This document shows positions 26,787-64,000 of a stretch of DNA of 64,000 bases, in pieces (within the stretch, counting starts at the first letter, position 1; every line of letters begins with the position of its first letter). The DNA comes from Planctomycetota bacterium (GTDB lineage: Bacteria > Planctomycetota > Planctomycetia > Pirellulales > UBA1268): assembly GCA_003671185.1 (NCBI GenBank), contig QWPN01000032.1:15805-79804 (forward strand), written 5' to 3'. The position numbers were made by a program, and so were the translations under genes. The notes beneath the pieces were generated by a model. The model saw only the letters and a list, made by a program, of their open reading frames with translations, was not told the DNA's origin and ran no database searches.

Positions 26787-26805
26787 CAGCGGGGGCGGCT
26801 CCGGT

Positions 26806-31096: not shown

Positions 31097-31117
31097 GACC
31101 TTCTCGCTGCCGCGATC

Positions 31118-34862: not shown

Positions 34863-34877
34863 GGTGATGTCCCTGGT

Positions 34878-37550: not shown

Positions 37551-37579
37551 TAGCTCCGGCGGCCGCCCGAGCTCTCAAC

Positions 37580-38671: not shown

Positions 38672-38698
38672 CCGTCGCTGGCCCGAGGAGTTCGCACC

Positions 38699-39364: not shown

Positions 39365-39370
39365 CCCACG

Positions 39371-40427: not shown

Positions 40428-40943
40428 TCAGGAACCGGGCTTCGCGCCGCCACCTGGAAAAAAGTTGAACGCCTGGGCACTGGCCGCCTGCGCCGCCGCC
40501 ACGGCGGCGGCCAGTTCGGCGACGTCGCGCACCGTGACCCAATCGAGGAGCCCGTCGCGCCACACCAGTTCCTCGGGACCGACGTCACCACTCGCCACGA
40601 GCTGCTGGAGCGTCCCCGTGTCTGCCGTCGTCTCCTGCTGGGCCCCGTGCACCGTGTAATGCCACACGAAACCGTCGTTCACCGGGGCTGGAGCCGCGGC
40701 CGGCGTGGCGCTGGTGGTCGTGGTGGACGGCGCGGGTGCGGCGACGGCTGCCCCGACGATGTCCGGGCAGTCGGCCAGCGGCACCCAACTCTGACGATCC
40801 GTCGAAACCTTGTCCGATCGGGCCGCCCTGCCTCGATGCAGCATGCCCCGCAGTTGCTGTGCACTGAAGGGGCCGCTGATCTTGGTCTGCTGTCGCAGGT
40901 AGTACATGTTCACGGCGAGCCTCCGGCCCGCCCTCCCGGTCAT
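40428..40943 (-). CDS. Double GYF_2(DUF4339)-like domain protein (array B, gene 5)
   Basis: The ATG at 40943 forms an ATGA overlap with the upstream stop; an alternative ATG is at 40907 (MYYLRQQ...). There are two repeats of the pattern [WY]-Y-x-n-G-x-n-L-x-n-W-V-x-V/L: MYYLRQQTKISGPFSAQQLRGML...QSWVPLADCPDI and WHYTVHGAQQ...LQQLVASGDVGPEELVWRDGLLDWVTVRDVAEL. Confidence 0.6.
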   Translation of the reverse strand: MTGRAGRRLAVNMYYLRQQTKISGPFSAQQLRGMLHRGRAARSDKVSTDRQSWVPLADCPDIVGAAVAAPAPSTTTTSATPAAAPAPVNDGFVWHYTVHGAQQETTADTGTLQQLVASGDVGPEELVWRDGLLDWVTVRDVAELAAAVAAAQAASAQAFNFFPGGGAKPGS

Positions 40944-42943
40944 TGTGTCGGCGATTGCAACATCACTTCGATCTCGTGGATCGCCGCCACCTCGTCGGGC
41001 GCCACACGACGCCGCACACTGCCGCCCAGCAGCGCATCCACCGTCGCACACTTGTCCATGGAGGCCTTGTCCCGCAGCGAATGGAGTCGCTGGAGGAGGC
41101 TCCTGGCGCGCTGTGCGTCCTTGCCGGCCAACGCCGCGTCGGCCTCGCCGCGAATCGTGGCCAGTTCCTCCTTGAAGGCCTGTGTGGCGGCCTCGCGGAA
41201 CTCGTTCTCGAGTTCCTTTTGCGCGTCGCCTCCGGCCACGATTTCACTCTCTTCCTTCTTCAGCGCATGGCGTGACTCGACGCAGTCTTCCGGCGGTACC
41301 TTGGCGGCACGGTCGCCCTGTCCCACGCGATGGCCCGGGTCACCACCCAGCGATCGCGCTACGCGCCACGCCTTGGCCGCGGCCGGCACGTCGTCCGGCC
41401 AGGCTTCGAGCCGCTGCAGTCCCGTGCGTTCCGTGAGCTTTCGTCTCGCCGTCTCCACGTTGGCGGCATGACGTGCCAACGCTTCCTGCACCTGCCCGCG
41501 CCGTTCACGTTCCTCGTCGACGGCGACACCGATTTCCTCGATCAACAGCGCGATTTTCTCATCCGCCGCATACGCGGACGCGACCTCGGCCACGAACTTC
41601 GGCGGTTCCACGAAATTGCCCGCCTGCGCCTGATGAAGGGTTTTTTCCAACCTCGCCCTGTCTTTCTCCAATTGCTGCGAACGTCGAGCCCCGAACATGA
41701 ACAGCCCGATCGCCAGGACCGCCATCACCACCCCGGCCACGACGGCTCCGAGCAGCATCGTGTGCCGGCGGGCTCCTCGGGCCCGCACCTCGGCCAGAGC
41801 CTCCTCGACGCGGACACGGAGCGGCTCCGGGTAGGCCAGGTCCGGCACTTCTTGGCACAGCCTCGCCACCTCGTCCTGCCGTTCGGCCACACTGTCGAGC
41901 CAGGCCGTCTCCACCTTCCAGTGCGGGAGCCGCTCGACGTGCTGCTCCAGTTGTTCGCAGGCATGCGCAAACCGGCTCGCCGTGTCGTCCCTCGTGTCCT
42001 GCTCGCCAAGCCAGTCGAGCACCGGCTGTGTTCGCGCCGGGAGCACGTCGAACCGGCCGAACAGCCCCTCGTCGCGGACGAGGGCGGCGACGTTGGGACT
42101 CTCGGCAAGCGCGGCACGGCAGCCGGCGGCTTCGTCGCGGGTCTCCTCCCAGCGCTGCCGCAACCGTCTGGCCTCGTCCACCATCTCCAGGGTGGGCGGC
42201 TGCAGCACCGCCCTGGCATACCAGGCCTCGAGCGCCGCGGCCGCTGCCTCGCCCTCGGTCACCACGTCCCGCAGCCGCAACCAGGCATCGGCTCCCCGAG
42301 TGGCACGCACGTATTCCTTGGGCACCGGCACCGTCCATCCGCTGGCCGTCAGTTCGTCGTGCAAGGTGGCTATGGCCGCGGGGTCGCGGGCCGCCAGCGC
42401 CTGCCGCACGGCGTCTTTCAGCTCCCCATGACGCACCTGTTCGTGGGCCGCGATCAACTCAGCCCACACCGGCTTCGTGGGATCGAGTTCGCCGAGCTTC
42501 CGCAGCACCGCCAGCCGCCGACCGAGCGGCGCCCGTTCGAGGGTCATGCGCCGCAACTTGTCCAGGGTTCGGCTCAACGGCTCGAGTTCCGAGTGCGCCG
42601 ATTCCAACGCCGAGAGCGTGTCGAAATCGACCGCCGGCGGCGGACCGATGCCCTCGCTGGCGAAGTATTGCTCGACCTGGGGCCACGTAGCTCGGTCCTG
42701 GAGATTGAGCCGGGCGGCGAGCGCCGGAAACTCGGGGTCGTGCAACGCGATGGCCTCGTCGCGAAGGCCCTCGAACAGCAATGCCTCCACCTCCCCCAGC
42801 GCGGCGTTGACCGCGTCGACCGTCTCGTGCAGGTTGGGGAGCAGGTCCCGGATCGCCACCAGCCCCTGCTCGTCGTGCCGCGCCATGGCGGTATCGATCG
42901 CGTTGACGAGCTTGGATAGGTCCTGGAGTCGCGTGAACGGCAT
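40940..42943 (-). CDS. Hypothetical all-helical protein with one central TM helix (array B, gene 4; 667 aa)
   Basis: GAGGAA SD. The sequence is predicted helical/coiled-coil-rich (by eye), with the TM helix MLLGAVVAGVVMAVLAIGLFMF at about aa 395-416. No known motif. Confidence 0.65.
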   Translation of the reverse strand: MPFTRLQDLSKLVNAIDTAMARHDEQGLVAIRDLLPNLHETVDAVNAALGEVEALLFEGLRDEAIALHDPEFPALAARLNLQDRATWPQVEQYFASEGIGPPPAVDFDTLSALESAHSELEPLSRTLDKLRRMTLERAPLGRRLAVLRKLGELDPTKPVWAELIAAHEQVRHGELKDAVRQALAARDPAAIATLHDELTASGWTVPVPKEYVRATRGADAWLRLRDVVTEGEAAAAALEAWYARAVLQPPTLEMVDEARRLRQRWEETRDEAAGCRAALAESPNVAALVRDEGLFGRFDVLPARTQPVLDWLGEQDTRDDTASRFAHACEQLEQHVERLPHWKVETAWLDSVAERQDEVARLCQEVPDLAYPEPLRVRVEEALAEVRARGARRHTMLLGAVVAGVVMAVLAIGLFMFGARRSQQLEKDRARLEKTLHQAQAGNFVEPPKFVAEVASAYAADEKIALLIEEIGVAVDEERERRGQVQEALARHAANVETARRKLTERTGLQRLEAWPDDVPAAAKAWRVARSLGGDPGHRVGQGDRAAKVPPEDCVESRHALKKEESEIVAGGDAQKELENEFREAATQAFKEELATIRGEADAALAGKDAQRARSLLQRLHSLRDKASMDKCATVDALLGGSVRRRVAPDEVAAIHEIEVMLQSPTQ

Positions 42944-42958
42944 GATCTCGGTTCCTCG

Positions 42959-44797
42959 CTAACGCGGCGCCGCGCCGGATGCATCGTCGGCCGCGGCAGT
43001 GGTGTGGGATCGGTGCCGCGCGAACGACACGAGCACGCTGCGGCCGATTCCGGGAAAACTTGCGCCCAGGTCACCGCTGAACGCTGCATCGCCGGCTCCG
43101 ATATCCTTCAAGAGCTGCTGGGCGGCCCGCTTGCCGTCCGGAACGGCGTCCAGTTCCTCGAGCATGCAGCAGAGGGCGACTTCGGTCGCCTCCTCCCGGT
43201 GTGCAGCCAGATCAGCCTGCAGGTGGCTCCAGTATGCACTGGTATCGGCATGTCCGTCCGCGATCTCCCGTCGTCCGTCGGCGCTCGCCTGCCAGGCCCG
43301 ATATCCGGGCGTTTCCCGCAGCAGCTCCCTGAACCTATCCTTCCACATGGCCAATGGGAGCGCCTCCTCGGGGCTCAATTTCTGCAGGCACTCGTGCAGT
43401 GCCCGCGGCGCTCCCGGCACCTGCAAGCGGTAACGCCGCACGACGTCGGCGAACTGCGCGATGGCGCCGATACCCGCTCGGTCGGCTTGGGGAACCCGGG
43501 CCTGCACCACGTCTGCGAATGCGTGCGGTTCGGGAAGCACAGCCAGCCCCGACCGCTCTTGGCCCGCATTTTGGACGTCCGCCAGACGGCGATACGAGTC
43601 CCAGGGATCGAGCACCCGAGACGAAGTCAGCCTGAACGGAAGTTCGAGCCGCTCACCGGACGAGAGCGGACCGCTCGGCCCCAGCGTCAGCGTGGTCTCC
43701 ATGAACGGCTGGCCCGTGGCGCCGGCCCACGCCCAGAGCAACGTGCATCCGGGCGGTTCGGCGCCGGGCTGGAGCCGTCCGGCATGGGGCGAAGCCGACG
43801 ATGACGAAGAGCCGCACGTCCCGTCGAGCCTCAGATCGACCACCCAGGGGCTGACCGGCACCTCGACGTGCAACAGGGGCTTCCCGCCGGCGGACGCGTC
43901 CACACGCAACGCCTCATCAAAAAAGAATCGCTTCACGTGCAGGGGACCGTGCTCGACGGGACGGCCCAATTGGACGTGGGTTTCCTGCCCCTCATGTCCT
44001 GCCGCGGAGATGGCGATCACCGTGCTGGCCAGCGCCTCCCGGGCCCGCCACTGCTCGACGTGCCCCGGCACAGTGACCGACTCGCGGACGTCGATCCACG
44101 CCGTCAGCATGCCACGCTCCACGGCGGCACCACCGCAACGCCGATCGCGGCCCGCCGTGACGCTCACAAACGTCCAGGACTGGTCGCCGTCGGGTCGGCA
44201 TTCGAGCACCGAAGGCGGACCGTCCGGGAGCAACTGCACCTTTTCGGCCGGGAGCCGCAGCGAGATGGGCACGTTGCCCACGGTGCACAGTTCCCCGCGC
44301 TGCCGCCGCGGATCACCGCCGTCGAGCCCCTGCAGCGGAAGGTGGCGGTTGTGCTGCAGTTCGGTGCCGATGGCAGCAAAATGCGAGACCGCCGCCGGTG
44401 CGGCACGCCGGCCATCGCCATCGGCACGCCGGCCGTCGCCTTCGGCGTGGGCGGCCGTGCCGTGAGACCGCATGGTGGAGCCGGCCCGGGAGCGTTTCGG
44501 GGCCCCCGCCGACATGTCGGTGCCGATCACCAGCGCGGCGATGCCACCGGCCACGAGACAACCGGCCACCGCCGCCAGGGCGAAGATGGTCTCGTTGCGA
44601 CGCATCTTTCGCCACTTTCGCGGCCGGGACAAACTCGCAGTTACCGCGTTCTGCTCGGCGGCAGTGGCGGCGGCAGCGGCGGCCGCCGGGGCGATTGCCG
44701 GCGGACGGACCGGTGCTCGACCTGGCACGGGCGCGGGCCGAGACGCCCCCGGTAGCGAGGGCGGCTTTGGCGGTGGCGGTGGATCCCGAAACGGCAT
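42959..44797 (-). CDS. Hypothetical Pro-rich single-pass TM protein, paralogue of the C-terminal half of the upstream gene (array B, gene 3; 612 aa)
   Basis: N-terminus MPFRDPPPPPKPPSLPG and TM helix IFALAAVAGCLVAGGIAALVI. The ~500-aa C-terminal region aligns by eye with 44814..~46350 (HLPLQGLDGG/HLPIQGLDSG; THVQLGRPVEHGPLHVKRFFFDEALR/THVQLCRPTAGGPIVVEQFFFDDKLR; AYWSHL...VALCC[ML]LEELD). Confidence 0.7.
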   Translation of the reverse strand: MPFRDPPPPPKPPSLPGASRPAPVPGRAPVRPPAIAPAAAAAAATAAEQNAVTASLSRPRKWRKMRRNETIFALAAVAGCLVAGGIAALVIGTDMSAGAPKRSRAGSTMRSHGTAAHAEGDGRRADGDGRRAAPAAVSHFAAIGTELQHNRHLPLQGLDGGDPRRQRGELCTVGNVPISLRLPAEKVQLLPDGPPSVLECRPDGDQSWTFVSVTAGRDRRCGGAAVERGMLTAWIDVRESVTVPGHVEQWRAREALASTVIAISAAGHEGQETHVQLGRPVEHGPLHVKRFFFDEALRVDASAGGKPLLHVEVPVSPWVVDLRLDGTCGSSSSSASPHAGRLQPGAEPPGCTLLWAWAGATGQPFMETTLTLGPSGPLSSGERLELPFRLTSSRVLDPWDSYRRLADVQNAGQERSGLAVLPEPHAFADVVQARVPQADRAGIGAIAQFADVVRRYRLQVPGAPRALHECLQKLSPEEALPLAMWKDRFRELLRETPGYRAWQASADGRREIADGHADTSAYWSHLQADLAAHREEATEVALCCMLEELDAVPDGKRAAQQLLKDIGAGDAAFSGDLGASFPGIGRSVLVSFARHRSHTTAAADDASGAAPR

Positions 44798-44813
44798 GGA
44801 ACGAATCCTGTCC

Positions 44814-47768
44814 TCAACGATCGACCGGCGGAGGCACGTCGAGCCTGTCCTCGATGGCGGGTGCGGCGGGGCGCTGAACTTTTGGCTTGTCGCGTTGGGC
44901 GGTCGGCTCCGGCTTTCTCGCGCTCACAAAGGTCGGGGGCTTGTCGCCAAGGACCAGAAGCACGCAGTTCCGTCCGTTTCCGAAGTCGATGGCGACGTCG
45001 CCACGAAACTCGGCATCGCCCTCGCCGAGCGCTTCGATCAGGCTCCTGGCCTGCTGTTTGAGCGGTGGCAGCATGTCCAGTTCCTCGAGCAGGCAGCACA
45101 GCGCCACGTCGGGGTGCGTGGTCTTGGTCCGGTCTTGCCCGGACTTGAGATGCGACCAGTATGCCGCGATGTCTCGCGGCGTTGGGGGACCTGAAGGCAC
45201 ATCCTGGTTCGCACCTCGGGCCGCAGTCGCGGTCCAATCCCGATATTCCGCCGACTCTGCCAACGCGCCGCGAATCCGCTCCTTCCACAGCGACACGGGT
45301 TGCTGGCCCTGCATTTCGATCTGTCCGAGGTCGAGCGGGGCCTTGGGATACTGCCGGCACACCTTGGTGCTGAATTTCTTGATGAGGTCGAAATCGACTT
45401 CGTCGTGGTCCGAGTCCGCCGGCACTTCGACGCCGATTTTCAGCAGGCTGACCCTCGGCAACTGGTGCAACGGGATCCGCGGCGGGACGGCCTGGTTGAG
45501 GTCCGCGCAGAAGCGGAACGTGTTCCACGGTTCCAGGACGTCGGACGACTGCAGCCAGAATTGGGTGTCGCATGGATCACTGTCCGTCGCCGGCACCTCT
45601 TTGTTGGCGAGTTGCAATTCCGTCTTCATCACGGGCTTGCCGGCGGGTGTCGACCATTCGATCGTCCAACTGGCGGGGGAGTTGAGCGCGGCGGAAGGAT
45701 ACCCTGCCCCTGACGTCGTGATTCTCCCCGCCAGTCCCCCGGGCACGCTCGTCCCCTCGAAACGCACCTGACATTGCCAGGGGGTCGAGGGCAGAGAGGC
45801 TCCCAGAAACAGTTTCACGGGGGTGTGCTTGAGCGATTGCGGCCGCAGTTTGTCATCGAAAAAAAACTGCTCGACCACGATTGGCCCGCCAGCGGTCGGA
45901 CGACACAACTGCACGTGCGTCGTCTGTTGGGGATGCTCCTCATCGGCCAGGATCACGATCGCGGTCGCCACCGCTGCCCGGGCGCCGAGATGTTCGCTGA
46001 ACCGCGGATCGTTGGGGGCGACCCGCTGATTCAGCGTGGCGCACACGGTATCGTCACGGATCGCCAGACGGCCAACTTCTATGGGCTCCGGAGCGACCGC
46101 GGCTCCGACTCGCGAACAGAGGATCCTCCAGTCGCCCTCCGCTGTCGGCACACACGACACTCGCGACTGCGGGCCGTTTGGTGCCAGGTTGAGCACGGCA
46201 TCCGGCAACTGCGGCCTGACCCTGGCGCCGTGCAGAGCGCACAGCCGTGCCGTCTGCTCCTGGAGAATGCCGCTGTCGAGTCCCTGGATGGGCAGATGCT
46301 CGGCGCTGTCGAGCGCTGAGCAGAGCTTGGGAAACGCGTCGACCGCTGGGGGAGCAGGCCGGGGCGGCCCGGGCGGCAGCGGCGGCGGTGGCGGTGGCGG
46401 TGGCGGTGGTGATGGTGAGGTGCGGCGGTCGATCGGCAAGCCGTCAGCCGACCGGGATGATGAATCGGCCACCACATCGGGACCGCCGACGACGAGGGGC
46501 GGCGGCACGGAAGACGGCTGAGCCACGATTGGCGCTCGTCCACCGCGGTCGGTTGCCAGTTCTGTTGGCGAAGGATTTCTTGGCCTCTCCGTCTCGCCGC
46601 TGGCGCCGGGGCGTCTCGAATTCGTGCGCGGCGGTGTCCCGGCGTCGCGCAATCCCATGAATCGCGTGCGCACACCGGGCACGACCAGGGCGATGAGTGC
46701 CACGATCACCGCCGTTGCCAGGGCGACCACGACGAGGGGCACCCATGACCGCCGTTGCCCCCGCTCCGCCCCCTCCGGTGCCGGCACGGCGGCGCGGGGC
46801 TGGCGAGCGGCGGTCGTGGAAAATGCGAACGGATTGGCGAGTGGCGGCGGAGCTCCAGGACGACCGGCCGCGATGCGTGGCGGCCTTCCGGGAGCGGCGG
46901 CCGCAGCGGCGCCGACGGCTGCGACCGCCCCGCCCCCACTCGCCGTTCCGGCCGGCAGCGCCTGCCACGGCACTTGTGCCTTTCCGCGAGCGGCGTCGAC
47001 CAGCGCCGATGCAGCCGTGAGCGGCGGCTTGCGGACGAGATCGACGACCGCGACCCGCGACTGCCCGCGGGCTGCCTGTGCTTCCGGCGAGCCATCCACG
47101 GTCCCCAGCCAGAGCATGTCGGGCTGCCCGACCGCGTACGTCGTGAACGTCACGCCCCAGCGCTGCGCGGGCGGCACGAGCGACAGGGCCTCCGCGAAGA
47201 GTTCGATGAGTTCGCAGTCTGCGGCGGCGATGATCCAGGTCTGTTCCCGACGCAGCGCCCGCTCGACGATGACACCCGCCCAACCGGCGTCACCCGCAAC
47301 ACGCGCCCAGGCATTGCATGGCTTCGGCTCGCACGCCGGCGCGGGTGGGGCGATCGTAGGCGCGGGTTGCTCGCGGGGCTGGCCCGACCATCGCCGCAGC
47401 AATCCGCCGGCATGATCGAGGGCCATCAGTACGCTGGCCGGACTCGACATGGCCCGCGCCGACACCTCGCCGCCGTCAAGCGCCAGATGATGGGCCAGCT
47501 TGTTGGAGCGGCCATCGTAGCCATTGCCCGCGTCGACGATGCTGCTGAGCACGGACATTTGGCCCGCCGGCGACTGAAGGAGCGCGTGGGACAGGATGCG
47601 GGGGTTCCGCGCGTCCCCCTGCGGGTACACGTGGCGGTAGGCGCTGCCCTGTTCCAATTTCGACTGCAGTTCGGGATGAATGCCTCGCGTCCGCAGCACG
47701 GTGGTGAAACCACTGCGGCCGGCCTGCAGGCCCCGCGCGGCGCTGGTGACCACGAGTTCGTGGATCAT
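44814..47768 (-). CDS. GAP1-like (GTPase-associated) single-pass TM protein, 984 aa (array B, gene 2)
   Basis: The ATG at 47768 (MIHELVVTSAARGLQAGRSGFTTVL...) forms an ATGA overlap with the GTPase stop. It has a ~330-aa N-terminal module, an Ala/Pro linker, the TM helix WVPLVVVALATAVIVALIALVV, a Pro10 tract, and the shared ~500-aa C-terminal domain. The GAP1 assignment rests on recollection of the family N-terminus and was not searched. Confidence 0.6.
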   Translation of the reverse strand: MIHELVVTSAARGLQAGRSGFTTVLRTRGIHPELQSKLEQGSAYRHVYPQGDARNPRILSHALLQSPAGQMSVLSSIVDAGNGYDGRSNKLAHHLALDGGEVSARAMSSPASVLMALDHAGGLLRRWSGQPREQPAPTIAPPAPACEPKPCNAWARVAGDAGWAGVIVERALRREQTWIIAAADCELIELFAEALSLVPPAQRWGVTFTTYAVGQPDMLWLGTVDGSPEAQAARGQSRVAVVDLVRKPPLTAASALVDAARGKAQVPWQALPAGTASGGGAVAAVGAAAAAAPGRPPRIAAGRPGAPPPLANPFAFSTTAARQPRAAVPAPEGAERGQRRSWVPLVVVALATAVIVALIALVVPGVRTRFMGLRDAGTPPRTNSRRPGASGETERPRNPSPTELATDRGGRAPIVAQPSSVPPPLVVGGPDVVADSSSRSADGLPIDRRTSPSPPPPPPPPPPLPPGPPRPAPPAVDAFPKLCSALDSAEHLPIQGLDSGILQEQTARLCALHGARVRPQLPDAVLNLAPNGPQSRVSCVPTAEGDWRILCSRVGAAVAPEPIEVGRLAIRDDTVCATLNQRVAPNDPRFSEHLGARAAVATAIVILADEEHPQQTTHVQLCRPTAGGPIVVEQFFFDDKLRPQSLKHTPVKLFLGASLPSTPWQCQVRFEGTSVPGGLAGRITTSGAGYPSAALNSPASWTIEWSTPAGKPVMKTELQLANKEVPATDSDPCDTQFWLQSSDVLEPWNTFRFCADLNQAVPPRIPLHQLPRVSLLKIGVEVPADSDHDEVDFDLIKKFSTKVCRQYPKAPLDLGQIEMQGQQPVSLWKERIRGALAESAEYRDWTATAARGANQDVPSGPPTPRDIAAYWSHLKSGQDRTKTTHPDVALCCLLEELDMLPPLKQQARSLIEALGEGDAEFRGDVAIDFGNGRNCVLLVLGDKPPTFVSARKPEPTAQRDKPKVQRPAAPAIEDRLDVPPPVDR
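46380..46409 (-). repeat. Pro10 tract encoded by a (CGGTGG)n hexanucleotide tandem repeat
   Basis: The plus strand reads cgg cgg tgg cgg tgg cgg tgg cgg tgg, which equals 10 consecutive Pro codons on the minus strand, within SPSPPPPPPPPPPLPPGPPRPAPP. Confidence 0.85.
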
Positions 47769-49087
47769 GGGGATTCCCCACCCCCTGCCTCGACCGCCGG
47801 TTTCGCCGCGTCCGCCGCAGCGGACCGCGGCACGCCGTGCGGAATGATGGCGGCCGAGCCACTGCCGAACTGGCTGAGCGCATAGAGCATGGGCACCTCG
47901 GCCCACATCGGGTTGATGGATCCGGCACGGTGCCAGTAGCCGTTGTCGGGGCCGCGCTGCGGCGGACCGCCCGTGGCACTGACCGGCACGTAGACGATCC
48001 TGCTCGGCTCGACGAAGCTCTCCGCCGTGGCCACGACCGCCGGCATGTACTCGTGCAGCATCTGGCGGATCGCGGCCGAAGCCCCCTGGATCATGTCGGG
48101 CCGCAGGACAGCGAAGCCGCCCGTCGGGTGCATGGTCCAGGGATCGGGCAGCCGCTCCCGGCCCAGGAGTTTCTGCCAGGCGTCGTATTTGTTCACCAGC
48201 ACGAGCAACGGCCGGTCGTGACGGGCATTCACCGCCAGGCCACGGTATGACTTGACGCGGCGGGCGACTTCCGCGAGCAACACTTCCTGCCGGCTGAGCA
48301 CCGCCGGATCGCGGACCTGCTCGTCCTCGGATATGTTCTGCAGGTGCTTGCGGAACTCGGGTTCCTGTGCCGGGTCATAGACGAACATCAGGCAATTCGA
48401 TTTCGCCAGATGCTGCGTCACGGGGTTGTCGGGCCGGTCGGCCCCGGGCTGGAAACTCTCGCCGGCGTTGTCGTAGACGCAGAGCGTGCGGGCCACGGAG
48501 GCGGGCTTGGCGGCATAGGGGTGTGAGCCAACCGGGCTGATCTGGAAGAAGAACGGCTTCGGGTAGAGGATCCGCTTCTCGCCGTAGGTCACCTCGTGAT
48601 ACCAGTCGCCGGTCACGTCGGTCTTCTTGAGATGCACGAGATCGTCGGGTTTGCCGTGCGCGAACAGTTCGTCCTCGTACTCGTGCAGCACCGCGTTGGC
48701 CTGCGGATCGGCATCGCTGAAGTCGATGGCAAACGACTTGGGGAGCAGTTTGCGCAGCCTGTGGATCATCGACGCCAACAGGTAGGACTTGCCGCTCTTG
48801 GGCGAGCCGAAGACCGACGCGAAGAACGCCGGCCGCTCCAGGAACACCCGCGGCACACCCAGATGACAACGCGGGCATGCGAGTTCGTGGCAGGGAGCAC
48901 CCTTGGCGTCCAAAGCCCGGCCTTCCGGATCGAAACGCGTGGGCGGAAAGCGCCGCCGTTCGTTCGGCCCCAGCCGCAGGTCACCGAACAGGTCGTGGTG
49001 CGATGACACATACCACACCCGCTCCGGCGGAAACCGCTCCCAGCAGTTGGGGCAGGTCACTTCCTTGACGAGGCTGGTGTGCTGCAT
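47765..49087 (-). CDS. Zn-ribbon + Ras-like (TRAFAC) GTPase (array B, gene 1)
   Basis: N-terminal CPNC...CPRC motif. G1 GSPKSGKS, G3 VYDNAGE, G4 LVNKYD, G5 VSATG. Confidence 0.8.
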   Translation of the reverse strand: MQHTSLVKEVTCPNCWERFPPERVWYVSSHHDLFGDLRLGPNERRRFPPTRFDPEGRALDAKGAPCHELACPRCHLGVPRVFLERPAFFASVFGSPKSGKSYLLASMIHRLRKLLPKSFAIDFSDADPQANAVLHEYEDELFAHGKPDDLVHLKKTDVTGDWYHEVTYGEKRILYPKPFFFQISPVGSHPYAAKPASVARTLCVYDNAGESFQPGADRPDNPVTQHLAKSNCLMFVYDPAQEPEFRKHLQNISEDEQVRDPAVLSRQEVLLAEVARRVKSYRGLAVNARHDRPLLVLVNKYDAWQKLLGRERLPDPWTMHPTGGFAVLRPDMIQGASAAIRQMLHEYMPAVVATAESFVEPSRIVYVPVSATGGPPQRGPDNGYWHRAGSINPMWAEVPMLYALSQFGSGSAAIIPHGVPRSAAADAAKPAVEAGGGESP

Positions 49088-49353
49088 GGTGGCGCTAGTG
49101 ATCGCGACTCCGGCAGGGACTCAGGCTGTGGGCAGCACCGGTTCGGGCGGTGCCCCGCCCGACGGCCCGGCGGCGTCACGTCCCTCCCTCAAAAGTATGG
49201 ACAGTCGGCATAACCCGCAACCCCCGCACCTGACGGATGGGGATGAAGCCGGGCCGCGGTTTGACCGATCACCGAAAGCGGGCTAGGGTTCCCGAGAGTC
49301 TGCCGTCGGCCTCCCAGACGGACCGTCCCGAACTCCAGCCCGGAGGGCTTTCC

Positions 49354-49908: not shown

Positions 49909-49923
49909 CGGCCGTCGCGCCGT

Positions 49924-54859: not shown

Positions 54860-54865
54860 GTTCGG

Positions 54866-57800: not shown

Positions 57801-58072
57801 TCGGCGTAACTCCACGCCTCCGGCACGCCCACATGCCCCGATTCATCGACGGGCAGGAGCGTCTTCACCCGCTGCACAAGCGACTCGATAGCGGCCCGTG
57901 TCCCGCGCACGGTGACGGTCTCTTCCCGCAACCGGCGTCGGACGTCGGAATCATGGGCCAGGAGCGGCTCGGGCATGCCGACCGCGCCGTCGCCCGCCGC
58001 CTCACGGCTCGCATGCGACAGGGAAAGCAATGCCTGCCTGCGACATTCCTCGACCATCCACGTCTCGGGCAT
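54866..58072 (-). CDS. Large hypothetical cytoplasmic protein (1068 aa) with GrpE-like C-terminal tail (array A, gene 4)
   Basis: ATG at 58072. No TM segment or NTPase motif. The last ~60 aa (VVFEPVKLTDYPSEWAV...PSGNRIRKVLRPGVRTLSSSLVRPAIVETE) resemble the GrpE beta-domain (..[36 protein letters not shown]). Confidence 0.6.
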   Translation of the reverse strand: MPETWMVEECRRQALLSLSHASREAAGDGAVGMPEPLLAHDSDVRRRLREETVTVRGTRAAIESLVQRVKTLLPVDESGHVGVPEAWSYAELIGWWLQAGEALGGWSAAELKQHGTVLSPARGGLYPPFWCMRRFERLHFSFDAWQQSALTAGVPGPDWRGVGKNRRDYRLKLLKWVMLHRRPRARRPDPARQSQEWLQSLREEFAGVLQDAEEMFGSERGLETGGPLTVDTVRDWIPAWHAGKFAGGLIQEVRRPVIQSAGERATLIKGIAVLPPASFMCRRITFAGNAAVTDWRAALEFAADCWGGNALDTAAVPPPAGAWKRAGDDARAVVSPEDLDAGLVAAARLLAAIACEENRQPATDGADEAHPVSREALRIAMAFEGFSLHTTPVQVGAEGRVIPHAAPEPAGGAAKLTLRAALAIPGGPPVAWDVDVGTVGPPAACGDGLLKVIEAVDWRIWALAQAPLADHASHQRDRILAAINHRRWETVKNHVLAGTMAERGPATAGLFDYAHRARLGLQPLVAAADEAVNQHLGNRLLDNLHELGRVALAEAAASDGQATERCSPPRQADGTVHVGKWLRQRLTADADADETGLTWVMSDSPFGTVLDERLDGRGWLVVTVSAGPVEEGDIGCLNTLLPAPREIAGSGRPLRIVLAEFQGRLIESLARSSPHPLDAELPALRDRFAGADAPAFHELIDRARKGDAALIAWVDLLVSDPRFDFRCHPPLTADRRELMPPGVDDEYLAWAHDPDVPAGTDLAVTFALEPRRARRVIGHGPREPGSAADLADRLVAATANAGERLKGLATSCRAATDRRQTFGEAAAHPVTKAGPLLDALLAGHDLDADARQAVYTAASRWCAALGHEVVPAEWRAGEALPGEQFGELEVMPAFDESVPAGAFMLKRFGIRGPCGVPLEGAVSAGPAPSGFNDLRAALSELGNTPELGHTPKLGDLDKRLNELAKQAANGRLPMVVPNLFDSLWGAAEAAPGPLQAAFEPAKGHLLQLLKSSCRMVVFEPVKLTDYPSEWAVGADGKRPSGNRIRKVLRPGVRTLSSSLVRPAIVETE

Positions 58073-58110
58073 GGTGCCATCCGTTGCTGCGCTGGTTGCG
58101 CTGGTGAACG

Positions 58111-60546
58111 CTAGATCTTGCCGCTCTGCGGAGGCGCCAGGTAGGGCGGCACCTCGAACGGATCGGCGATCACGCGGTCTTCCTTGCCGCCATCTCGCTT
58201 CGGGTAGGCGACAAAGGCGTGCGCGTCCTCACTGTCGTACTCCACGAGATACGCCCCTTCCACCGGCTCGGGGAAGCGGAAGATCACGTACGGCTCGGCC
58301 ACCGACTCGCCCGGCCATCGTCGGCTGAGCACGACCTCACGCACGCTAGGCCTGCCGGTCACCGGATCCGGCTTGATGTCGATCGTCCGCGGCAGCAACT
58401 CCGAATACAGTTCGCCCGTGTGATACAGCACACGGTCGCCGACACTGCCCAGCGTGACGTGTACGACGTCGAAGGGCAGCCGGCGCACGACCTGATGATC
58501 CCAGGACACCGTCATGCCCATCTCTTGGTAGCGGAGCTTCATGGCCACGATCGCCCCCTTGGCGACCGAGTTCTTGAAGTCCTCCGGGCGGACCAGCGCC
58601 AGCCGATCCTTGAGGAAGCGCACCCGCAGGCCGCGTTGCGGATCGAGGAGCATCTCGCGAATGCGCGGATATCGCGAGGCGTTGCCGACCAGGTACACCC
58701 AGTGCACCTCCGGCACCTCGAGCGATCCGGGAACGGCCCCGCCCGGCCCCGACTGGGGCGCCAGGCAGGTTTCCAGCAGATCGTTCGCGTATTCGATGGT
58801 GCGCACGATCGGCGCATCGATGAGGGCGTCGACTTCGCGCCGCTGCACCTTGAGCTTTTCCACGAGTTCGTCCGGCATCACGTCCTGGCCCGGGTTCAGC
58901 TGCTTCCACAGCTTGTTGAGCAACCCAGTCTCTTCGGGGCCGGGCGTGCAGAATTGCGCGGTGGGGGCGCTGAGCCGGATCTTGAACCGCTCCGCCAACT
59001 TCCACAGATCCATGACGGTTTCGCGGCGCCGCTTGGCCTCGCTGTTCTGGCTCTGCCGCACGTCGAACGTCGTGGGCACGGCATCGTTGATGGCCTTCCT
59101 GTTTTCAGGGCGGTCGAGGAATTCGGCCAGCTTCGCCGGCGCGGGCAGGGGCTCGACCTTTTCCTGAAGCTCCGCCAGCCTCGCCTTGAGCAGCCGGAAC
59201 ACCTGCTCGGTGATGTAGTCGCCGCCGAACGTGCGGTGGCCGGCCCGGCCCAAGACGCTGATCTTCAGAGCGCCGGCGTCGGACGACTCCAGTCGCACGA
59301 GCGCCAGGTCGGTGGTGCCGCCACCGCAGTCGTAGAGCAGCATGTGCATGCCGTTCGGGTACAGGTAGCGGAAGGCCGGCATGCGGCCAGGTCCGAAAAT
59401 GAAGTCCCTATAGGCGAAATAGAATGCGGCCGCCGACGCTTCGTCCACGACCATCGGCACGCGGGCGTCGATCATCTCCGGACGGAACGAGGCAGCCGTC
59501 TTCCCCAATACCCGGTGAAACGCCCGGGCCACCGTGGTGCGCAGGCGGTTCACCTCCGACTCCGAGAACGTCGTCGGGCAGGTGACGACGATCGGCTCCG
59601 GGACCGACTGGCGGTGGTAGAAGAACCCGCGCAGCATCTGGCTGATGAACACCTCCGCGGGATCCTCCTTGCGGATCACGTGCGGGGTGTTGTTGAGCAC
59701 GATCACTTCACTGTCGGAATTGGCGTCGGACTGGCGGCGATCCGAAAGCAGCCGCTTCGCCCCCAGCACCAGCCACGTATCGTCGCGGGCGTCGTCCATG
59801 GCCCGCTTGCCGATCCGCGACTCGTAGACCATGAACTGCTGGGGGGTTTCCGGATCCCTGATCCCGTAGATGCGCAGAGCGGTCTGCACGGGCCCTGGCT
59901 TTTCGTTGACGTTCACGTCGCCGACCTCATCGGCCTGCACGACCTCGAACTCGCTCTGATTCGTCTCGGAGCAAACGAGCGTGCTGCCGGTATTGCCGAA
60001 GTCGAGGGCCACATAGCCGGCGAAGTGCCCCATCTCCTTCATGGGACTGAGGATCAGCCGGGCGTCGACCCGTGAGGCGAGCACCGCCTTCGTCTCCGGA
60101 TCGACCGCGAACACGTCGATGTCGAGCGTCACGGGCGCGCCCAACTGGGCGGCACCGCCCTTTGGCGACGCCTTCATCTGCTGCGCCTTCTCCACCACCT
60201 TTGGATGGTCGGTGTCGACCTCGATGTCGACGTCCAAATCGGCGGCACCCTGCATCGCCACCACCACGAATTCCTTGGCCTGGAGCACACTGGGCGGAAC
60301 CCGCAGGAACTGCCCCACGTACTTGCGGGCCTCGGCGCCACCCTTGTGCGACTTCTCCGGCACCACGCGAATGAAGCGGCCCAGTTCCCGCGGCAACGAC
60401 ACCACCAGGAACCACTGGTTGCTGGTGGCAATGAAGGCGGGCGTGACCTGCACGTTGTCGAGCAGATCGTTGTTCGCGATCGTGAACTTGTACTTCCGCA
60501 CACCGGTGCGGGGTATGACGCCATGGGCGTGAATCGACGCGGTCAT
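58111..60546 (-). CDS. Atypical Hsp70/actin-fold ATPase, 811 aa (array A, gene 3)
   Basis: Phosphate-1 motif VALDFGNTGSTLV, phosphate-2 motif LLYDCGGGTTDLALV, and adenosine motif VYLVGNASRYPRIREML. It also has a ~180-aa non-DnaK N-terminal domain and a beta-rich C-terminus. Confidence 0.8.
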   Translation of the reverse strand: MTASIHAHGVIPRTGVRKYKFTIANNDLLDNVQVTPAFIATSNQWFLVVSLPRELGRFIRVVPEKSHKGGAEARKYVGQFLRVPPSVLQAKEFVVVAMQGAADLDVDIEVDTDHPKVVEKAQQMKASPKGGAAQLGAPVTLDIDVFAVDPETKAVLASRVDARLILSPMKEMGHFAGYVALDFGNTGSTLVCSETNQSEFEVVQADEVGDVNVNEKPGPVQTALRIYGIRDPETPQQFMVYESRIGKRAMDDARDDTWLVLGAKRLLSDRRQSDANSDSEVIVLNNTPHVIRKEDPAEVFISQMLRGFFYHRQSVPEPIVVTCPTTFSESEVNRLRTTVARAFHRVLGKTAASFRPEMIDARVPMVVDEASAAAFYFAYRDFIFGPGRMPAFRYLYPNGMHMLLYDCGGGTTDLALVRLESSDAGALKISVLGRAGHRTFGGDYITEQVFRLLKARLAELQEKVEPLPAPAKLAEFLDRPENRKAINDAVPTTFDVRQSQNSEAKRRRETVMDLWKLAERFKIRLSAPTAQFCTPGPEETGLLNKLWKQLNPGQDVMPDELVEKLKVQRREVDALIDAPIVRTIEYANDLLETCLAPQSGPGGAVPGSLEVPEVHWVYLVGNASRYPRIREMLLDPQRGLRVRFLKDRLALVRPEDFKNSVAKGAIVAMKLRYQEMGMTVSWDHQVVRRLPFDVVHVTLGSVGDRVLYHTGELYSELLPRTIDIKPDPVTGRPSVREVVLSRRWPGESVAEPYVIFRFPEPVEGAYLVEYDSEDAHAFVAYPKRDGGKEDRVIADPFEVPPYLAPPQSGKI

Positions 60547-60576
60547 GGGACTTCCTGGCAGCTGACGCCGCCGCCC

Positions 60577-62631
60577 TTAACGGAGGGTGGAGAGGCGGGA
60601 ACGGAACTCGGCATACAGTGCCTTCGCCCCGGGGTCGATGCAGTCGACCTCGCTGCCGACGGCCCGGTAGCGGTCGGCGAGATTCTCGATATGGTGGCGC
60701 ATCTCGTCCACCAGTCGCGAGCCGTAGACCTGCGAGGCGCGGCGAACCTTGCGCCGCATGATTTCCAGGTAGTCACCCACGGCGAGCATTTGCTGGCCAC
60801 CGGCGTCGAAGGGGCTGGGGTCCGACTCGATGCCGTTGAACACGGGCTGGCGGAACTCCACGCGTCCGGCGGAGCGGCCGGGCTCCAGAAAATCCTCGCA
60901 CACCTTGGCCCAGTGCTGCAGCGGTGTGTCGAACCCCGGGGCGTCCGGGGCCGCCTGGCGGCTGCTCTCGTCCTCGAATACTTTCTTCACCTCGGCGGCG
61001 ATGAGCCGCGTCTGGGCACCCGCCTCCTCCGCGCCCGACCGGGCCAGCACGCGGGCCAAATTGGAGTGGTTGGCGGCCAGGTTGCGGTCGGCCGGCATGC
61101 CCCAGCCCTCCAGCAGGTTGTCCATGTTTTTCTCGACCACGTCGACGAGCGGTTGGCTGAACCGGGCGTCGTTGGCCACCGTCTCGGCAATCGACGACAG
61201 CCTGCCGCTCCACATGGCGGCGGACCGCATCTGCTCCGTCGACATGCCGGACTGCTGCTCGGCCACCTCCAAGGCCCCGATCAGCCCGTCGATGATCCGA
61301 GTCAGCCGGTCACCGACCGCACGCTTGGTCTGGGAACGGACCGAATCCGCAACCTTCGACTGCATCGTCTCGCGAAGGTTCGACAAGCCGCCGTCGATCA
61401 CGAACCGGCGCCACGGCTCGACCTGGCCGGGATACCGCTGGCAGCGCTCGGGAACAACGGGGTTTCCGTCGGCATCGAACTTCAGCACGGTCTCGAACTG
61501 CGACTGTATCTCAGGCGTGGGACGGGACAACGAGCCGTCGGGCTGGCGGGGCAGGGCCAGCAGCTTCGTGTAGTAGTAGTTGCCCACGAAAATCACGGCG
61601 TCGCCCCCCAGCCCCTGGTTCTTCAGGGTGTCGTTGAGGTGGCAGAAGGCAGAGGGCTGCGAGGCATCCTCTGGTGGCCCGTTGAGCTGCAGGTCGTTGA
61701 GGTTGTCGCACTTCGTGACCACCATCCAGACGCGGCCGCCGAGCGTGTTCTTGTGCTGGTCACGCATCACCTCAGCCAGCGTCGACACGGTGCCCGACTT
61801 CATCTGATGCGATTCCTGGAACATGAACGCACCGTCGACGTGCGGCAGGAACGCGATCGTGAGCGCGTCGTCGCTCTCCTTGTCCACCCCCAGCCCCGGC
61901 AGGTCGATCATGTCGATCTCGTGGCTCATGGCGTCGGTGACGAAGTAGATGCGGACCTCGCGCAGCAGCGTGTACTTGGAGGGCTTCTCCTGGTGGGTGG
62001 CGTAGTCGCGTCGCTTCTTGAAATCACCGACCTCCACCTTGGAGGTTTCCTGGATCACGTCCGGAAACTCGAGGGCCGCCTTGAGCAGGCCGATCAGCAC
62101 GCCGTGGTCCGGCGCCTTGAAGTGGGGCTGTTCGGCAGTCTGCCGCTGCGCGGCTTCGAGCAGCGCGCGGCGATTTTCGTCGTACGTGAGCTTGCAGATC
62201 CGGCACAGATCCTTGAGTCGATCGCGAAACTGCGCCGTGTTCATGTATTGCAGTTCGATGTAGTGCCGTTCGCCGGGCTGGCACTGCGGGTGCGGCGCGG
62301 CACAGGGCACGAGCCGGGTGGGCACGCTGGTGGTCGGTCCACCCGACCCCTGCGGCGCCGGACATTCATCCTTCGACACGGAGAGCAGGTTGCCAACGGT
62401 CGTCGACTTGCCCGCCTGCGATGGGCCGATGAATCCGATCGAGAACCGCTGACGCGTCATCTCCACGGCCAGCTTGGAGAGTTCCTCCTTGACCCGCCCC
62501 ACCACGTCACGATCGGCGAAGCGCGGCAGCTTCGCCGTCGCCTCAGAGAGGATCTGGTCCACGTCGTTGAAGCGCTCGACGAGTCGCTCGTCCTGCAGCA
62601 GCTTGCAGGATTCCTGTGTCAGTCTGCCCAT
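60577..62631 (-). CDS. Dynamin-like large GTPase, 684 aa (array A, gene 2)
   Basis: ATG at 62631 (GGGAGA SD) within ORF 60577..62718. G1 GFIGPSQAGKST, G3 MIDLPGLG, G4 VVTKCD, followed by a ~400-aa helical region. Confidence 0.8.
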   Translation of the reverse strand: MGRLTQESCKLLQDERLVERFNDVDQILSEATAKLPRFADRDVVGRVKEELSKLAVEMTRQRFSIGFIGPSQAGKSTTVGNLLSVSKDECPAPQGSGGPTTSVPTRLVPCAAPHPQCQPGERHYIELQYMNTAQFRDRLKDLCRICKLTYDENRRALLEAAQRQTAEQPHFKAPDHGVLIGLLKAALEFPDVIQETSKVEVGDFKKRRDYATHQEKPSKYTLLREVRIYFVTDAMSHEIDMIDLPGLGVDKESDDALTIAFLPHVDGAFMFQESHQMKSGTVSTLAEVMRDQHKNTLGGRVWMVVTKCDNLNDLQLNGPPEDASQPSAFCHLNDTLKNQGLGGDAVIFVGNYYYTKLLALPRQPDGSLSRPTPEIQSQFETVLKFDADGNPVVPERCQRYPGQVEPWRRFVIDGGLSNLRETMQSKVADSVRSQTKRAVGDRLTRIIDGLIGALEVAEQQSGMSTEQMRSAAMWSGRLSSIAETVANDARFSQPLVDVVEKNMDNLLEGWGMPADRNLAANHSNLARVLARSGAEEAGAQTRLIAAEVKKVFEDESSRQAAPDAPGFDTPLQHWAKVCEDFLEPGRSAGRVEFRQPVFNGIESDPSPFDAGGQQMLAVGDYLEIMRRKVRRASQVYGSRLVDEMRHHIENLADRYRAVGSEVDCIDPGAKALYAEFRSRLSTLR

Positions 62632-62680
62632 CGGTCGATTCTCCCTGTCTTCCCTGCGGGCAGCGGCCCGCGGATCGAGC

Positions 62681-63904
62681 TCACTCCATCGCCCGCAATT
62701 CGGAGACCCACTCCCCAATCCGGTCCGGCACCATATAGCCCTCGGTCATCTTCAAGGGTAGTTTCTCGCCATCCGTCCCCTCGAACTCGTAGACCAAGAG
62801 GGCGTTGTCTCCCACGGCGTTGGCCTGGGCGCCGAGCTGCTTCTTCCAGCCTTCCACGTCGAGTTCGCTGCGGGCCGTGAACCGATCGCCCACCAGCGGC
62901 AGTTCCACCCATCCCGCCGGGGAGTCAGGCCTGAGCGCACCCTTGCGGATGCCCTTGCGGATCACGTCGGGCAACTTCTTGAATCCGTCCTCCTGCGCCA
63001 GGATCGCCTCGATCGACTCACGCTCGCGGGCCAACTGCTCACCGTTGAGCGGAAACAGCACCCACAGCCGCTTGGGTTCCACGTTTCGCGGCTTGGGGAA
63101 GTCGAACACCAGTTTTCCGTCCACGATGCTCACCCGCTTGCCCAGCACCTCGATGAAACTGGCCACCATCAGCGAGGCCGGCTGCAACTCCTTGATCGGG
63201 TTGCCGACCTTCTTGGGATCGCGGAGCGATTCGAAGAGCAACGCTTCATTGCCCACGATGTCGTTGAGTGTCACAAGGTAGCAGCGGCCCACGTTGGGCC
63301 AGGCCTGGGACACCTCGCGCTTGTTGGTCTTGACGCCGTCGTCCTCGGTGACCTCGAAGCGAATCGAGCGCGGCGGGCGTCCCTTGGGCAGCTTGAGGAC
63401 GTAGGTGCCGGGGCTGTGGAAGCGGAGATCGAACCCGTCGGGGTTCGCCACGCCGACGCCAACTTCCAGCGTCTTCTCCCCCTTGCCGTCCCCGGCGTCG
63501 GCCACCACGGTGGCGCTGTCCATGTAGCCGTAGGCGCTGCCGAGGTTGATGCTCCACGAACCGTCCTCGCCTTGCAGGGGCTCTATGAGCGCGGCCTTGG
63601 TCGCCGCAGAGCCATCACGCTTGGCACCGGTCCCGCGCGTGAGCACGGATCGCAGCACGAGATACGTTTCGGCGTCGACCGGCTCGACGACCATGTCCTT
63701 GAACGTGCAGCCGGTCGTGCCCTTGCGCGCCGACTCGAACTTCTGCTTCACCTCGCTGAGCGTGGTGGTGGGCTCGGTCTGGATCACCATGTAGATCACC
63801 CGGGCGTCGGCCGCGGCGGCACGTGCTGCACCGGCGAGCAGCAGACTTGCCCCCAGGCAGGCGCCGAGCGCGGCGGCCGGGATGCGGGCCAGTACGGGAT
63901 TCAT
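62681..63904 (-). CDS. Secreted hypothetical protein, 407 aa (array A, gene 1)
   Basis: ATG at 63904 with an AGGAG 8 nt upstream; the ORF extends to 63952. Signal peptide MNPVLARIPAAALGACLGASLLLAGAARAAAA. No known domain. Confidence 0.65.
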   Translation of the reverse strand: MNPVLARIPAAALGACLGASLLLAGAARAAAADARVIYMVIQTEPTTTLSEVKQKFESARKGTTGCTFKDMVVEPVDAETYLVLRSVLTRGTGAKRDGSAATKAALIEPLQGEDGSWSINLGSAYGYMDSATVVADAGDGKGEKTLEVGVGVANPDGFDLRFHSPGTYVLKLPKGRPPRSIRFEVTEDDGVKTNKREVSQAWPNVGRCYLVTLNDIVGNEALLFESLRDPKKVGNPIKELQPASLMVASFIEVLGKRVSIVDGKLVFDFPKPRNVEPKRLWVLFPLNGEQLARERESIEAILAQEDGFKKLPDVIRKGIRKGALRPDSPAGWVELPLVGDRFTARSELDVEGWKKQLGAQANAVGDNALLVYEFEGTDGEKLPLKMTEGYMVPDRIGEWVSELRAME

Positions 63905-64000
63905 CGGGTCACTCCTGGGGAATGCTGGTGGATGGGCGCTGGGATTGGTCACGGGGTGACGGCGGCGGCCGGCTGATCGGTGGGGAGGGGTCTCGACGGC

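Follow-up and report, generated by a model that had tools for sequence, protein, structure and literature searches.

A planctomycete gene cluster places a predicted DO-GTPase/GAP1-N2 system beside a conserved, previously undescribed operon encoding dynamin-like and Hsp70-fold nucleoside triphosphatases

Two adjacent gene arrays in a planctomycete genome encode several nucleoside triphosphatases (NTPases) together with membrane-anchored and secreted proteins, and they raise the question of whether they belong to any system already named and whether they act together. The arrays lie on contig QWPN01000032.1 of Planctomycetota bacterium (Pirellulales; assembly GCA_003671185.1), of which we analyzed positions 15,805 to 79,804, a stretch of 64,000 nucleotides referred to here as the window. 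A first-pass annotation, made from the letters of the DNA alone, had regarded the two arrays, A and B, as the best candidate for an undescribed system with no assignable pathway, either a signalling or membrane-remodelling machine between cytoplasm and periplasm or, as an alternative, a GTPase-thresholded conflict or defence system. Our analysis shows that array B is a further member of a known system that exists only as a prediction, and that array A is most likely a new theme of the same system.

Twelve genes run along the minus strand from 63904 down to 40428, with array A occupying 49924-63904 and array B 40428-49087 of the window, gaps of -4 to 49 bp within the arrays and 836 bp between them. 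All 12 tightly packed open reading frames (ORFs) are present at the coordinates first annotated and their junction motifs are exact (ATGA at 47765-68 and 40940-43, GTGA at 53951-54 and TGATG at 51994-98), while the signal peptides and transmembrane (TM) segments, assessed by hydropathy and N-terminal hydrophobicity, are as described. Two genes had been overlooked: array A runs one gene past the end of the window, to A0 on the source contig, and the gap between the arrays holds the plus-strand gene A8. Beyond the window, the source contig was read as ENA ERZ19025640 scaffold_56, a metagenomic scaffold of 85.7 kb with a G+C content of 66-71%. Genes of array or module A are labelled A0-A8 and those of array or module B B1-B5, and the compared loci carry L-numbers, L001 being the source contig. 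Lengths in the following list are in amino acids (aa), and coordinates are those of the window unless otherwise stated.

A0, L001:2944-4401 on the source contig, just beyond window position 64000, same strand as A1: kinase-like protein of 485 aa, first gene of array A
A1, 62681-63904, minus strand: secreted protein of 407 aa with an N-terminal signal peptide (hydrophobic N-terminus), second gene of array A
A2, 60577-62631, minus strand: bacterial dynamin-like GTPase of 684 aa
A3, 58111-60546, minus strand: divergent Hsp70-fold ATPase of 811 aa
A4, 54866-58072, minus strand: mostly helical protein of 1068 aa
A5, 53951-54859, minus strand: polytopic membrane protein of 302 aa with hydrophobic segments
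A6, 51996-53954, minus strand: protein of 644-652 aa, anchored at its N-terminus, that combines Calx-beta-like domain(s) with a Gly/Ser-rich linker
A7, 49924-51996, minus strand: secreted vWA-domain protein of 690 aa with a signal peptide
A8, 49237-49908, plus strand: small secreted protein (~184-223 aa), convergent with A7
B1, 47765-49087, minus strand: DO-GTPase of 440 aa, TRAFAC class, with an N-terminal zinc ribbon
B2, 44814-47768, minus strand: GAP1-N2-type GTPase-associated protein of 984 aa
B3, 42959-44797, minus strand: single-pass membrane protein of 612 aa, TM helix at 73-91, with a Pro-rich cytoplasmic N-terminus
B4, 40940-42943, minus strand: helical single-pass membrane protein of 667 aa, TM helix at 397-415
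B5, 40428-40943, minus strand: double-GYF protein of 171 aa (GYF domains bind proline-rich peptides)

'GTPase-centric' conflict systems built on DO-GTPases and GAP1 proteins were predicted computationally by Kaur, Burroughs, Iyer and Aravind (2020, eLife 9:e52696; PMC7159879). B2 matches both GAP1-N2 (PF20013; E 7.4e-17, 62 bits, cut-off 24) and GAP1-M (PF20014; E 3.7e-8, 34 bits, cut-off 24), and its parts follow the order cytoplasmic GAP1-N2 and GAP1-M, one TM helix (345-363), a poly-Pro linker and an extracytoplasmic domain of ~510 aa, in keeping with the earlier description of a GAP1-like single-pass TM protein. This layout recurs among 78 B2 homologues, all of which contain GAP1-N2 and 72 of which have a single TM helix at ~330-380, with Pro-rich tracts adjoining the helix in 33; frequent fusion of GAP1-N2 proteins to C-terminal TM segments had been noted in the 2020 survey (PMC7159879). 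Directly upstream of B2 lies B1, the stop codon of which overlaps the GAP1 start in ATGA. The match of B1 to DO-GTPase2 (PF19993; E 3.9e-5, 23.9 bits) stays under the cut-off of 27, but its conserved motifs, namely the zinc ribbon CPxCW...CPxCH, GxPxSGKS as P-loop, YDNAGE as Walker B with its glutamate, and [NT]KxD, fit the Zn-ribbon Ras-like GTPase that had been annotated. It is by such features that Kaur et al. delimit the DO-GTPase/GAP1 systems. The array ends with B5, in which GYF_2 matches two stretches (E 2.3e-19), consistent with the double-GYF protein first proposed, and GYF proteins close the B operon in every related locus examined. As a GYF pair had been linked to planctomycete GAP1-N2 systems (PMC7159879), the combination of GAP1-N2, GAP1-M and DO-GTPase2 families with a double-GYF partner identifies array B, on its domain content, as a DO-GTPase/GAP1-N2 system of the planctomycete double-GYF subtype, already predicted in 2020.

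The conflict-system alternative of the first-pass annotation was thus exactly right for array B, the families of which match those of the 2020 paper, whereas the view of the locus as undescribed and without assignable pathway holds for array A and not for array B. The set therefore falls in part, through array B, within a system that already has a name, albeit as a prediction. In the literature searched, GAP1-N2 or GTPase-associated protein 1 was named only in the 2020 paper and no experimental follow-up was found.

The remaining genes of array B add to this picture. B3, annotated as a paralogue of the GAP1 protein, is indeed homologous to B2, but only to its C-terminal half beyond the TM helix (BLASTP of B2 470-937 against B3 131-590: 31% identity over 479 aa, E 5e-60), so that B2 and B3 are predicted to expose related domains outside the membrane; sequence searches with this outer domain returned no solved relative. 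Homologues of B4 follow the GAP1 gene in L086, L088, L010 and L106, and genes for proteins of 640-1000 aa occupy the B4 position in L087, L115, L116 and L117; judged by position and homology, B4 is a conserved third component of planctomycete GAP1-N2 operons. The order GTPase, GAP1-N2, B4-position protein and GYF protein(s) was found in L086, L087, L088, L115, L116, L117 and the contig carrying P0158, and some related B loci have the GYF domain fused to TM2, RDD, PrsW or trypsin. In four loci a MotA/ExbB gene stands directly after the GYF genes (L086:16854-19634, L088:8223-10944, L115:20284-23010 and L117:17037-20444), each trailed by two to four unannotated same-strand genes, which suggests a proton-motive-force component in these relatives without counterpart in the window copy. 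A promoter and terminator scan of 39.7-50.1 kb gave no difference from shuffled sequence.

Set against the system of Kaur et al., the window copy has the same Walker-B-Glu, Zn-ribbon TRAFAC GTPase upstream of a GAP1-N2/GAP1-M protein, the same arrangement of GAP1 with a C-terminal TM helix and extracytoplasmic region, a linked GYF pair and a planctomycete host. It differs in having one GTPase rather than a pair, in the extra paralogue of the GAP1 outer domain (B3), in a GYF protein that stands alone rather than fused to trypsin or a TM-rich region as in the planctomycete subtype, and in its coupling to a dynamin/Hsp70-like operon, on which the paper is silent.

That operon, module A, is itself conserved. 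The order A0-A1-A2-A3-A4 tail recurs in ~27 loci in which protein identity is 20-40%, an arrangement far beyond chance, and homologues are syntenic rather than scattered, which was the pattern that the first-pass annotation had proposed to look for. Hosts include Isosphaeraceae (among them the complete genome of Tautonia plasticadhaerens), Gemmataceae/Fimbriiglobus, Thermoguttaceae, Pirellulales, Planctomycetaceae and Kuenenia, so that almost all module A loci belong to Planctomycetota, with A5, A6 and A8 confined to closer relatives of the window copy. The family is sparse: a scan of 185,579 species genomes yielded ~30 A3-family loci. Searches of PADLOC, PHROGs and NCBIfam with module A returned nothing informative beyond marginal LeoA/LeoBC matches and HscA/DnaK fragments, no paper describing the module was found, and the word 'dynamin' occurs 0 times in PMC7159879. 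By gene order and homology, module A is a conserved, previously undescribed planctomycete operon.

Some occurrences of the module fall outside this range or have unusual neighbours. A full A0-A1-A2-A3 set is present in L033, a contig binned with a metagenome-assembled genome of Chitinophaga sp. (Bacteroidota), and reflects either a mis-binned contig or horizontal transfer. Distant A3-like Hsp70-fold proteins occur outside Planctomycetota in Candidatus Latescibacterota (L037-L039, L051 and L055), and in L037 a weak match to the A4 tail (E 0.007) comes after the A3-like protein; the A3/A4-tail pair may extend beyond Planctomycetota. Genes for a resolvase, rve integrase, large serine recombinase or reverse transcriptase lie just upstream of module A in T. 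plasticadhaerens (CP036426; L002:1-4124) and of module B in L117 (404-7130), which suggests that the modules are mobile.

Two of the module A proteins are NTPases of recognizable fold. A2 scores above the curated cut-off for Pfam Dynamin_N (E 2e-6; 28.4 bits, cut-off 27), its profile finds SynDLP (Slr0869) as the closest solved relative in the PDB (E 4e-11), followed by mitofusins, and the GxxxxGKS (G1), DxPG and G4 Asp motifs are kept across 31 homologues; these results agree with the dynamin-like GTPase first annotated. With other bacterial dynamin-like proteins A2 shares a dynamin-type GTPase domain bearing all G motifs. In PADLOC the cluster gave marginal matches over partial stretches to LeoBC (E 2.8e-4) and LeoA (E 3.2e-3), components of a defence system called Eleos or 'Dynamins', from which the present locus differs in having one dynamin gene rather than a pair and entirely different partner proteins. 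DynA of Bacillus subtilis is a two-headed dynamin fusion, whereas A2 is a single dynamin. DynA is reported to limit phage spread by its action on the membrane (PMC8844932).

A3 was predicted to be an atypical Hsp70-like ATPase, a relationship barely visible by sequence (Pfam HSP70, E 0.0098) that emerges from its structure. In an AlphaFold2 model (pLDDT 88, pTM 0.88) the nucleotide-binding domain is preceded by an extra beta domain at the N-terminus (~1-170) and followed by a beta-rich C-terminal domain, and with this model Foldseek retrieved full-length DnaK as the best match (E 1.8e-21), with BiP and Ssb at ~1e-21, over ~655 columns and at 15% identity. The ASKHA/Hsp70 nucleotide-binding motifs DLGNT, DEASAAA, DCGGGTTD and VGNASRYP are kept in the family, three being invariant and DLGNT mostly so. 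At E<=1e-30 the family amounts to 232 clusters among 1.84 billion representatives.

Downstream of A3, A4 divides into an N-terminal ~740 aa that evolve fast (found in only five loci) and a C-terminal tail of ~330 aa that is kept in ~25 loci. A word-indexed search returned only six close homologues, and the AlphaFold2 model (pLDDT 36) is unusable. The GrpE-like character that the first-pass annotation gave the tail is unproven: a profile of the A4 tail gave no GrpE match in the PDB at E<=10, Pfam GrpE matched one of 19 tail family members weakly (E 0.29), and hhalign of the tail against Escherichia coli GrpE was likewise weak (1.5-2.9% probability); with shuffled controls, the mid-tail scored 18.3 against a shuffled maximum of 13.8, and the extreme C-terminus gave no signal. 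A4 may be a co-factor of A3. In P0204, a protein of 1261 aa from a Logan contig, a homologue of the A4 N-region is naturally fused to a Ser/Thr kinase (HRDVKPTN, DFG) and a zinc-ribbon-like CxxC...CxxC element; the kinase is apparently active, judging from its motifs, and the fusion hints that A4 is tied to kinase signalling.

The other proteins of module A are more divergent. Profile searches with A0 give weak yet consistent matches to protein kinases around the catalytic loop and DFG motif: the pseudokinase VRK3 is the best PDB match (E 0.02), and kinases, aligned on the same region, make up most of the other matches listed; hhalign gave E 0.008. The HRD catalytic motif is replaced in A0, and no individual member of its family matches Pfam Pkinase; with low confidence, A0 is probably kinase-like and inactive. 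On the source contig it is preceded by genes for a bacterial-PH protein and a TPR+Trypsin_2 protein, both outside the window. A1 has neither a Pfam relative nor, by sequence, a solved relative in the PDB, and its homologues hold the same position in ~28 loci. A5 has no family match and is kept in closer relatives only; the idea that it is a MotA/ExbB-like channel was unsupported (hhalign E 0.39). The Calx-beta domain annotated in A6 is weak in the window protein (E 0.054) and in L006 (E 0.018) but clear in the positional orthologue from Tautonia (E 4e-11); close homologues of A6 were found in L006, L007, L089, L092, L094 and L096.

A7 lies downstream of the module A core in at least 13 loci. 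Its assignment as a vWA protein is borne out in part, by a motif resembling a metal ion-dependent adhesion site (MIDAS), D293-x-T295-x-S297, and by Pfam matches of the orthologues (VWA_4, TssR_VWA and VWA) that remain below threshold. Among 12 orthologues D293 and S297 never vary and T295 hardly does, and in a five-sequence subset all three residues are invariant. A secreted vWA protein with a MIDAS-like motif in a multi-gene NTPase cluster recalls the MoxR-vWA (Bat/ternary) systems; here, however, the NTPases are GTPases and an Hsp70-fold ATPase, and no MoxR/AAA+ ATPase was matched by any cluster protein in Pfam, NCBIfam or PADLOC. By tblastn, A8 comes straight after A7 in nine loci (L001 itself, L089, L006, L090, L092, L093, L094, L095 and L091), and by this conserved position it is an accessory gene of array A in this sub-clade.

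How the two modules relate is best seen from the arrangements in which they occur together. A precedes B in the window, L089 and L115; in L086, B is followed by a MotA/ExbB trio and then A0-A1-A2; in L004/L005, A0 directly follows genes for a GAP1-N2 protein and a DO-GTPase, of which only the DO-GTPase was detected ahead of A0 in the related loci L014, L027 and L029-L031; the Isosphaeraceae locus L010 has B4 and GYF genes upstream of A; and in L106 a convergent B4-GYF pair lies downstream of A7. The L004/L005 DO-GTPase (L004:2858-4972) carries a fused right-handed beta-helix (Beta_helix/NosD) at its C-terminus, and the GAP1-N2 protein encoded there measures only 548 aa. The survival of A-B adjacency through rearrangement, in five gene orders and at ~25% identity, argues for functional coupling of the modules. 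Since each module is also found alone, the two are probably coupled modules rather than one fixed operon, and to speak of two adjacent arrays, as the first-pass annotation did, is fair.

The published GAP1-N2 neighbourhoods fall into themes, namely tubulin, Hsp70 with GrpE, and kinase/PP2C/vWA (PMC7159879). As module A holds an Hsp70-fold ATPase, a possible co-factor, and kinase-like and vWA proteins, and adds a dynamin, it reads as a fourth theme, and by this analogy it is most likely a planctomycete theme standing beside the other three. One comparison is with the Hsp70 + GrpE theme, which makes up ~14% of GAP1-N2 neighbourhoods, mainly in Actinobacteria and Firmicutes (PMC7159879): here too an Hsp70-fold ATPase lies beside a GAP1-N2/DO-GTPase pair and is followed by a partner, A4, that may be its co-factor. 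The present locus departs from the theme in that A3, at 15% identity to DnaK, has diverged strongly and bears an additional domain at the N-terminus, in its planctomycete host, in the lack of a DnaJ or TPR-FNIII protein (no DnaJ or fn3 match in Pfam among the cluster proteins), and in the addition of the dynamin-like GTPase and the kinase-like, vWA and Calx-beta proteins. Distant Hsp70-like matches in Firmicutes were considered as a link to the published theme and rejected, as they lie in DnaJ-FHA-FHA-PP2C-...-VgrG-like operons in which no GAP1 was detected. In L077:2580-13991 (Clostridium aciditolerans) and ~15 similar Firmicutes loci (including L040, L048, L059 and L062), a different atypical Hsp70-like protein of ~876 aa shares a conserved operon with a DnaJ-domain protein, a pair of FHA proteins, a phosphatase of the PP2C type and a protein resembling VgrG/baseplate hubs, in what looks like another uncharacterized system.

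Taken together, these observations lead us to propose, at about an even chance, that A and B are two coupled modules of one NTP-gated, envelope-spanning system in which B is the switch and A the planctomycete output or assembly module. To the domain identities, hydropathy topology, synteny and A-B linkage, which were established directly, this proposal adds sensor, switch and output roles, GYF binding and a conflict function that we infer. The outward-facing domains of B2 and B3, possibly with the vWA and Calx-beta proteins, would sense an envelope-level event, and the signal would cross the membrane to the GAP1-N2/M domains of B2, which would contact the Zn-ribbon GTPase B1 and set its state, so that B1 would act as the switch or provide a threshold. 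B5, through its two GYF domains, would probably dock on the Pro-rich juxtamembrane tracts of B2 and B3. For the output, the dynamin-like GTPase would assemble on the cytoplasmic membrane together with the Hsp70-fold ATPase and A4, and they would remodel it, either sealing it, as is reported for B. subtilis DynA in phage resistance (PMC8844932), or disrupting it, and the trigger would be an envelope-level insult such as a phage or other invader. Such an envelope-spanning, membrane-remodelling reading is compatible with the data, and a conflict role would fit the rare and patchy distribution of the families, the fast evolution of several parts and the recombinase, integrase and reverse-transcriptase neighbours in Tautonia and L117.

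Several observations weigh against this proposal. Linkage of A and B is not obligatory: it was seen in ~9 of the 23 A loci with enough flank, a lower bound as the region downstream of A7 is usually cut off; B occurs without A within 10 kb and with unrelated flanks in L087, L116, L117 and the contig carrying P0158, and A occurs without B in the visible flanks of at least ten loci (e.g. L002, L003, L011, L012, L015-L018, L025 and L026). The genes around the cluster in the window, among them the nuo operon and those for CheA and an M32 peptidase, are of housekeeping type and do not make up a defence island, module A contains no nuclease, toxin or protease, and no toxic effector was recognizable in the cluster. 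Components expected from the published systems also went undetected: GAP1-C was not detected in B2, where Pfam reports nothing past GAP1-M and the TM helix and ~510-aa outer domain stand instead; no DnaJ or clear GrpE domain was found in the cluster by Pfam; and none of the 12 cluster proteins has an fn3-type Pfam match, a fast-evolving FNIII-repeat protein being said to typify GAP1-N2 systems (PMC7159879, where it is left unstated whether the GYF subtype has one). Finally, that GAP1-N2 systems act in conflict at all is so far a prediction.

The separate occurrence of the modules would be expected if A and B were independent neighbours, with B the predicted conflict system and A a lineage-specific machine for membrane homeostasis or remodelling (membrane repair, invagination or budding, or envelope biogenesis) that has no conflict role. 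Where B is lacking, A begins cleanly at A0 and the genes upstream are not conserved, the neighbours being unrelated from locus to locus, and the housekeeping surroundings and the lack of nuclease, toxin and protease in A point the same way. Five gene orders that preserve A-B adjacency, including in distant Gemmataceae at ~25-30% identity, are, however, hard to explain without coupling. A core machine should also be commoner than the A3 family, for which the 232 clusters and ~30 loci noted above were recovered, and the N-terminal part of A4, A5 and A6 evolve fast. We consider this explanation less likely than coupled modules, though the likeliest of the alternatives.

The MotA/ExbB genes that follow the GYF genes in L086, L088, L115 and L117 raise another possibility, namely that the cluster is an energized trans-envelope apparatus for adhesion, transport or a motility-like function, resembling Tol/Ton/Agl-type motors, and does not serve immunity. 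The cytoplasmic NTPases, together with the proton channel in relatives, would then power vWA and Calx-beta adhesion modules located in the periplasm or at the surface, in agreement with the several secreted or anchored proteins of the cluster and the outward-facing domains of GAP1 and B3. Since the window has no MotA/ExbB gene and A5 resembles MotA only at E 0.39, since library profile scans of the cluster proteins detected no secretin, pilin, TonB or outer-membrane component, and since the distribution is rare and patchy, we regard such an apparatus as unlikely.

More improbable again is a reading in which module A would be a membrane-trafficking or scission-and-uncoating machine that shares the protein logic of eukaryotic endocytosis and operates under the DO-GTPase/GAP1 switch. 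The dynamin-like GTPase would cut or fuse membrane, the Hsp70-fold ATPase with its giant co-factor would take apart a coat or scaffold, the kinase-like protein would regulate the process and the small-GTPase switch would read the periplasmic vWA, Calx-beta and sensor domains, making this a GTPase-gated membrane-remodelling pathway rather than a conventional defence of the toxin type.

A cluster without functional unity, in which ORFs follow one another on one strand by chance or as artefacts of high G+C, could be suspected because long spurious ORFs are common at 66-71% G+C, the 806-aa ORF at 37349-39769 being an example. This view is effectively refuted by synteny, as 12 of the 12 genes have homologues in conserved order elsewhere and several have significant domain or fold matches.

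The proposal of coupled modules bears on GAP1-N2/DO-GTPase systems in general, which are among the least understood of the predicted bacterial conflict systems. To these the locus adds a planctomycete-specific partner module of dynamin-like GTPase, divergent Hsp70-fold ATPase, and kinase-like, vWA and Calx-beta proteins, and this module strengthens the idea that GTPase switches control nucleotide-driven, self-assembling, 'cytoskeleton-like' outputs. If the coupling is true, NTPases of three different classes would be joined here in a single envelope-spanning bacterial system, which would be a rare case. The locus further provides a compact set of ~14 genes, one version of which resides in the complete genome of T. 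plasticadhaerens, with which one could ask whether bacterial dynamins work together with Hsp70-like ATPases to defend or remodel membranes.

Two observations concern the DNA beyond array B. An ORF of 806 aa adjoins it on the minus strand (37349-39769); the translation is not protein-like and has homologues in 0 of the fetched loci. This ORF is probably an artefact of the high G+C content, and plus-strand ORFs at 37580-40360 may be the true genes there. Farther along, at 24700-35000 on the minus strand, lies the NADH:quinone oxidoreductase (nuo) operon with NuoH, NuoD, NuoL, NuoM and NuoN-type subunits, in a region where the AT skew is strongly positive (0.16-0.24).

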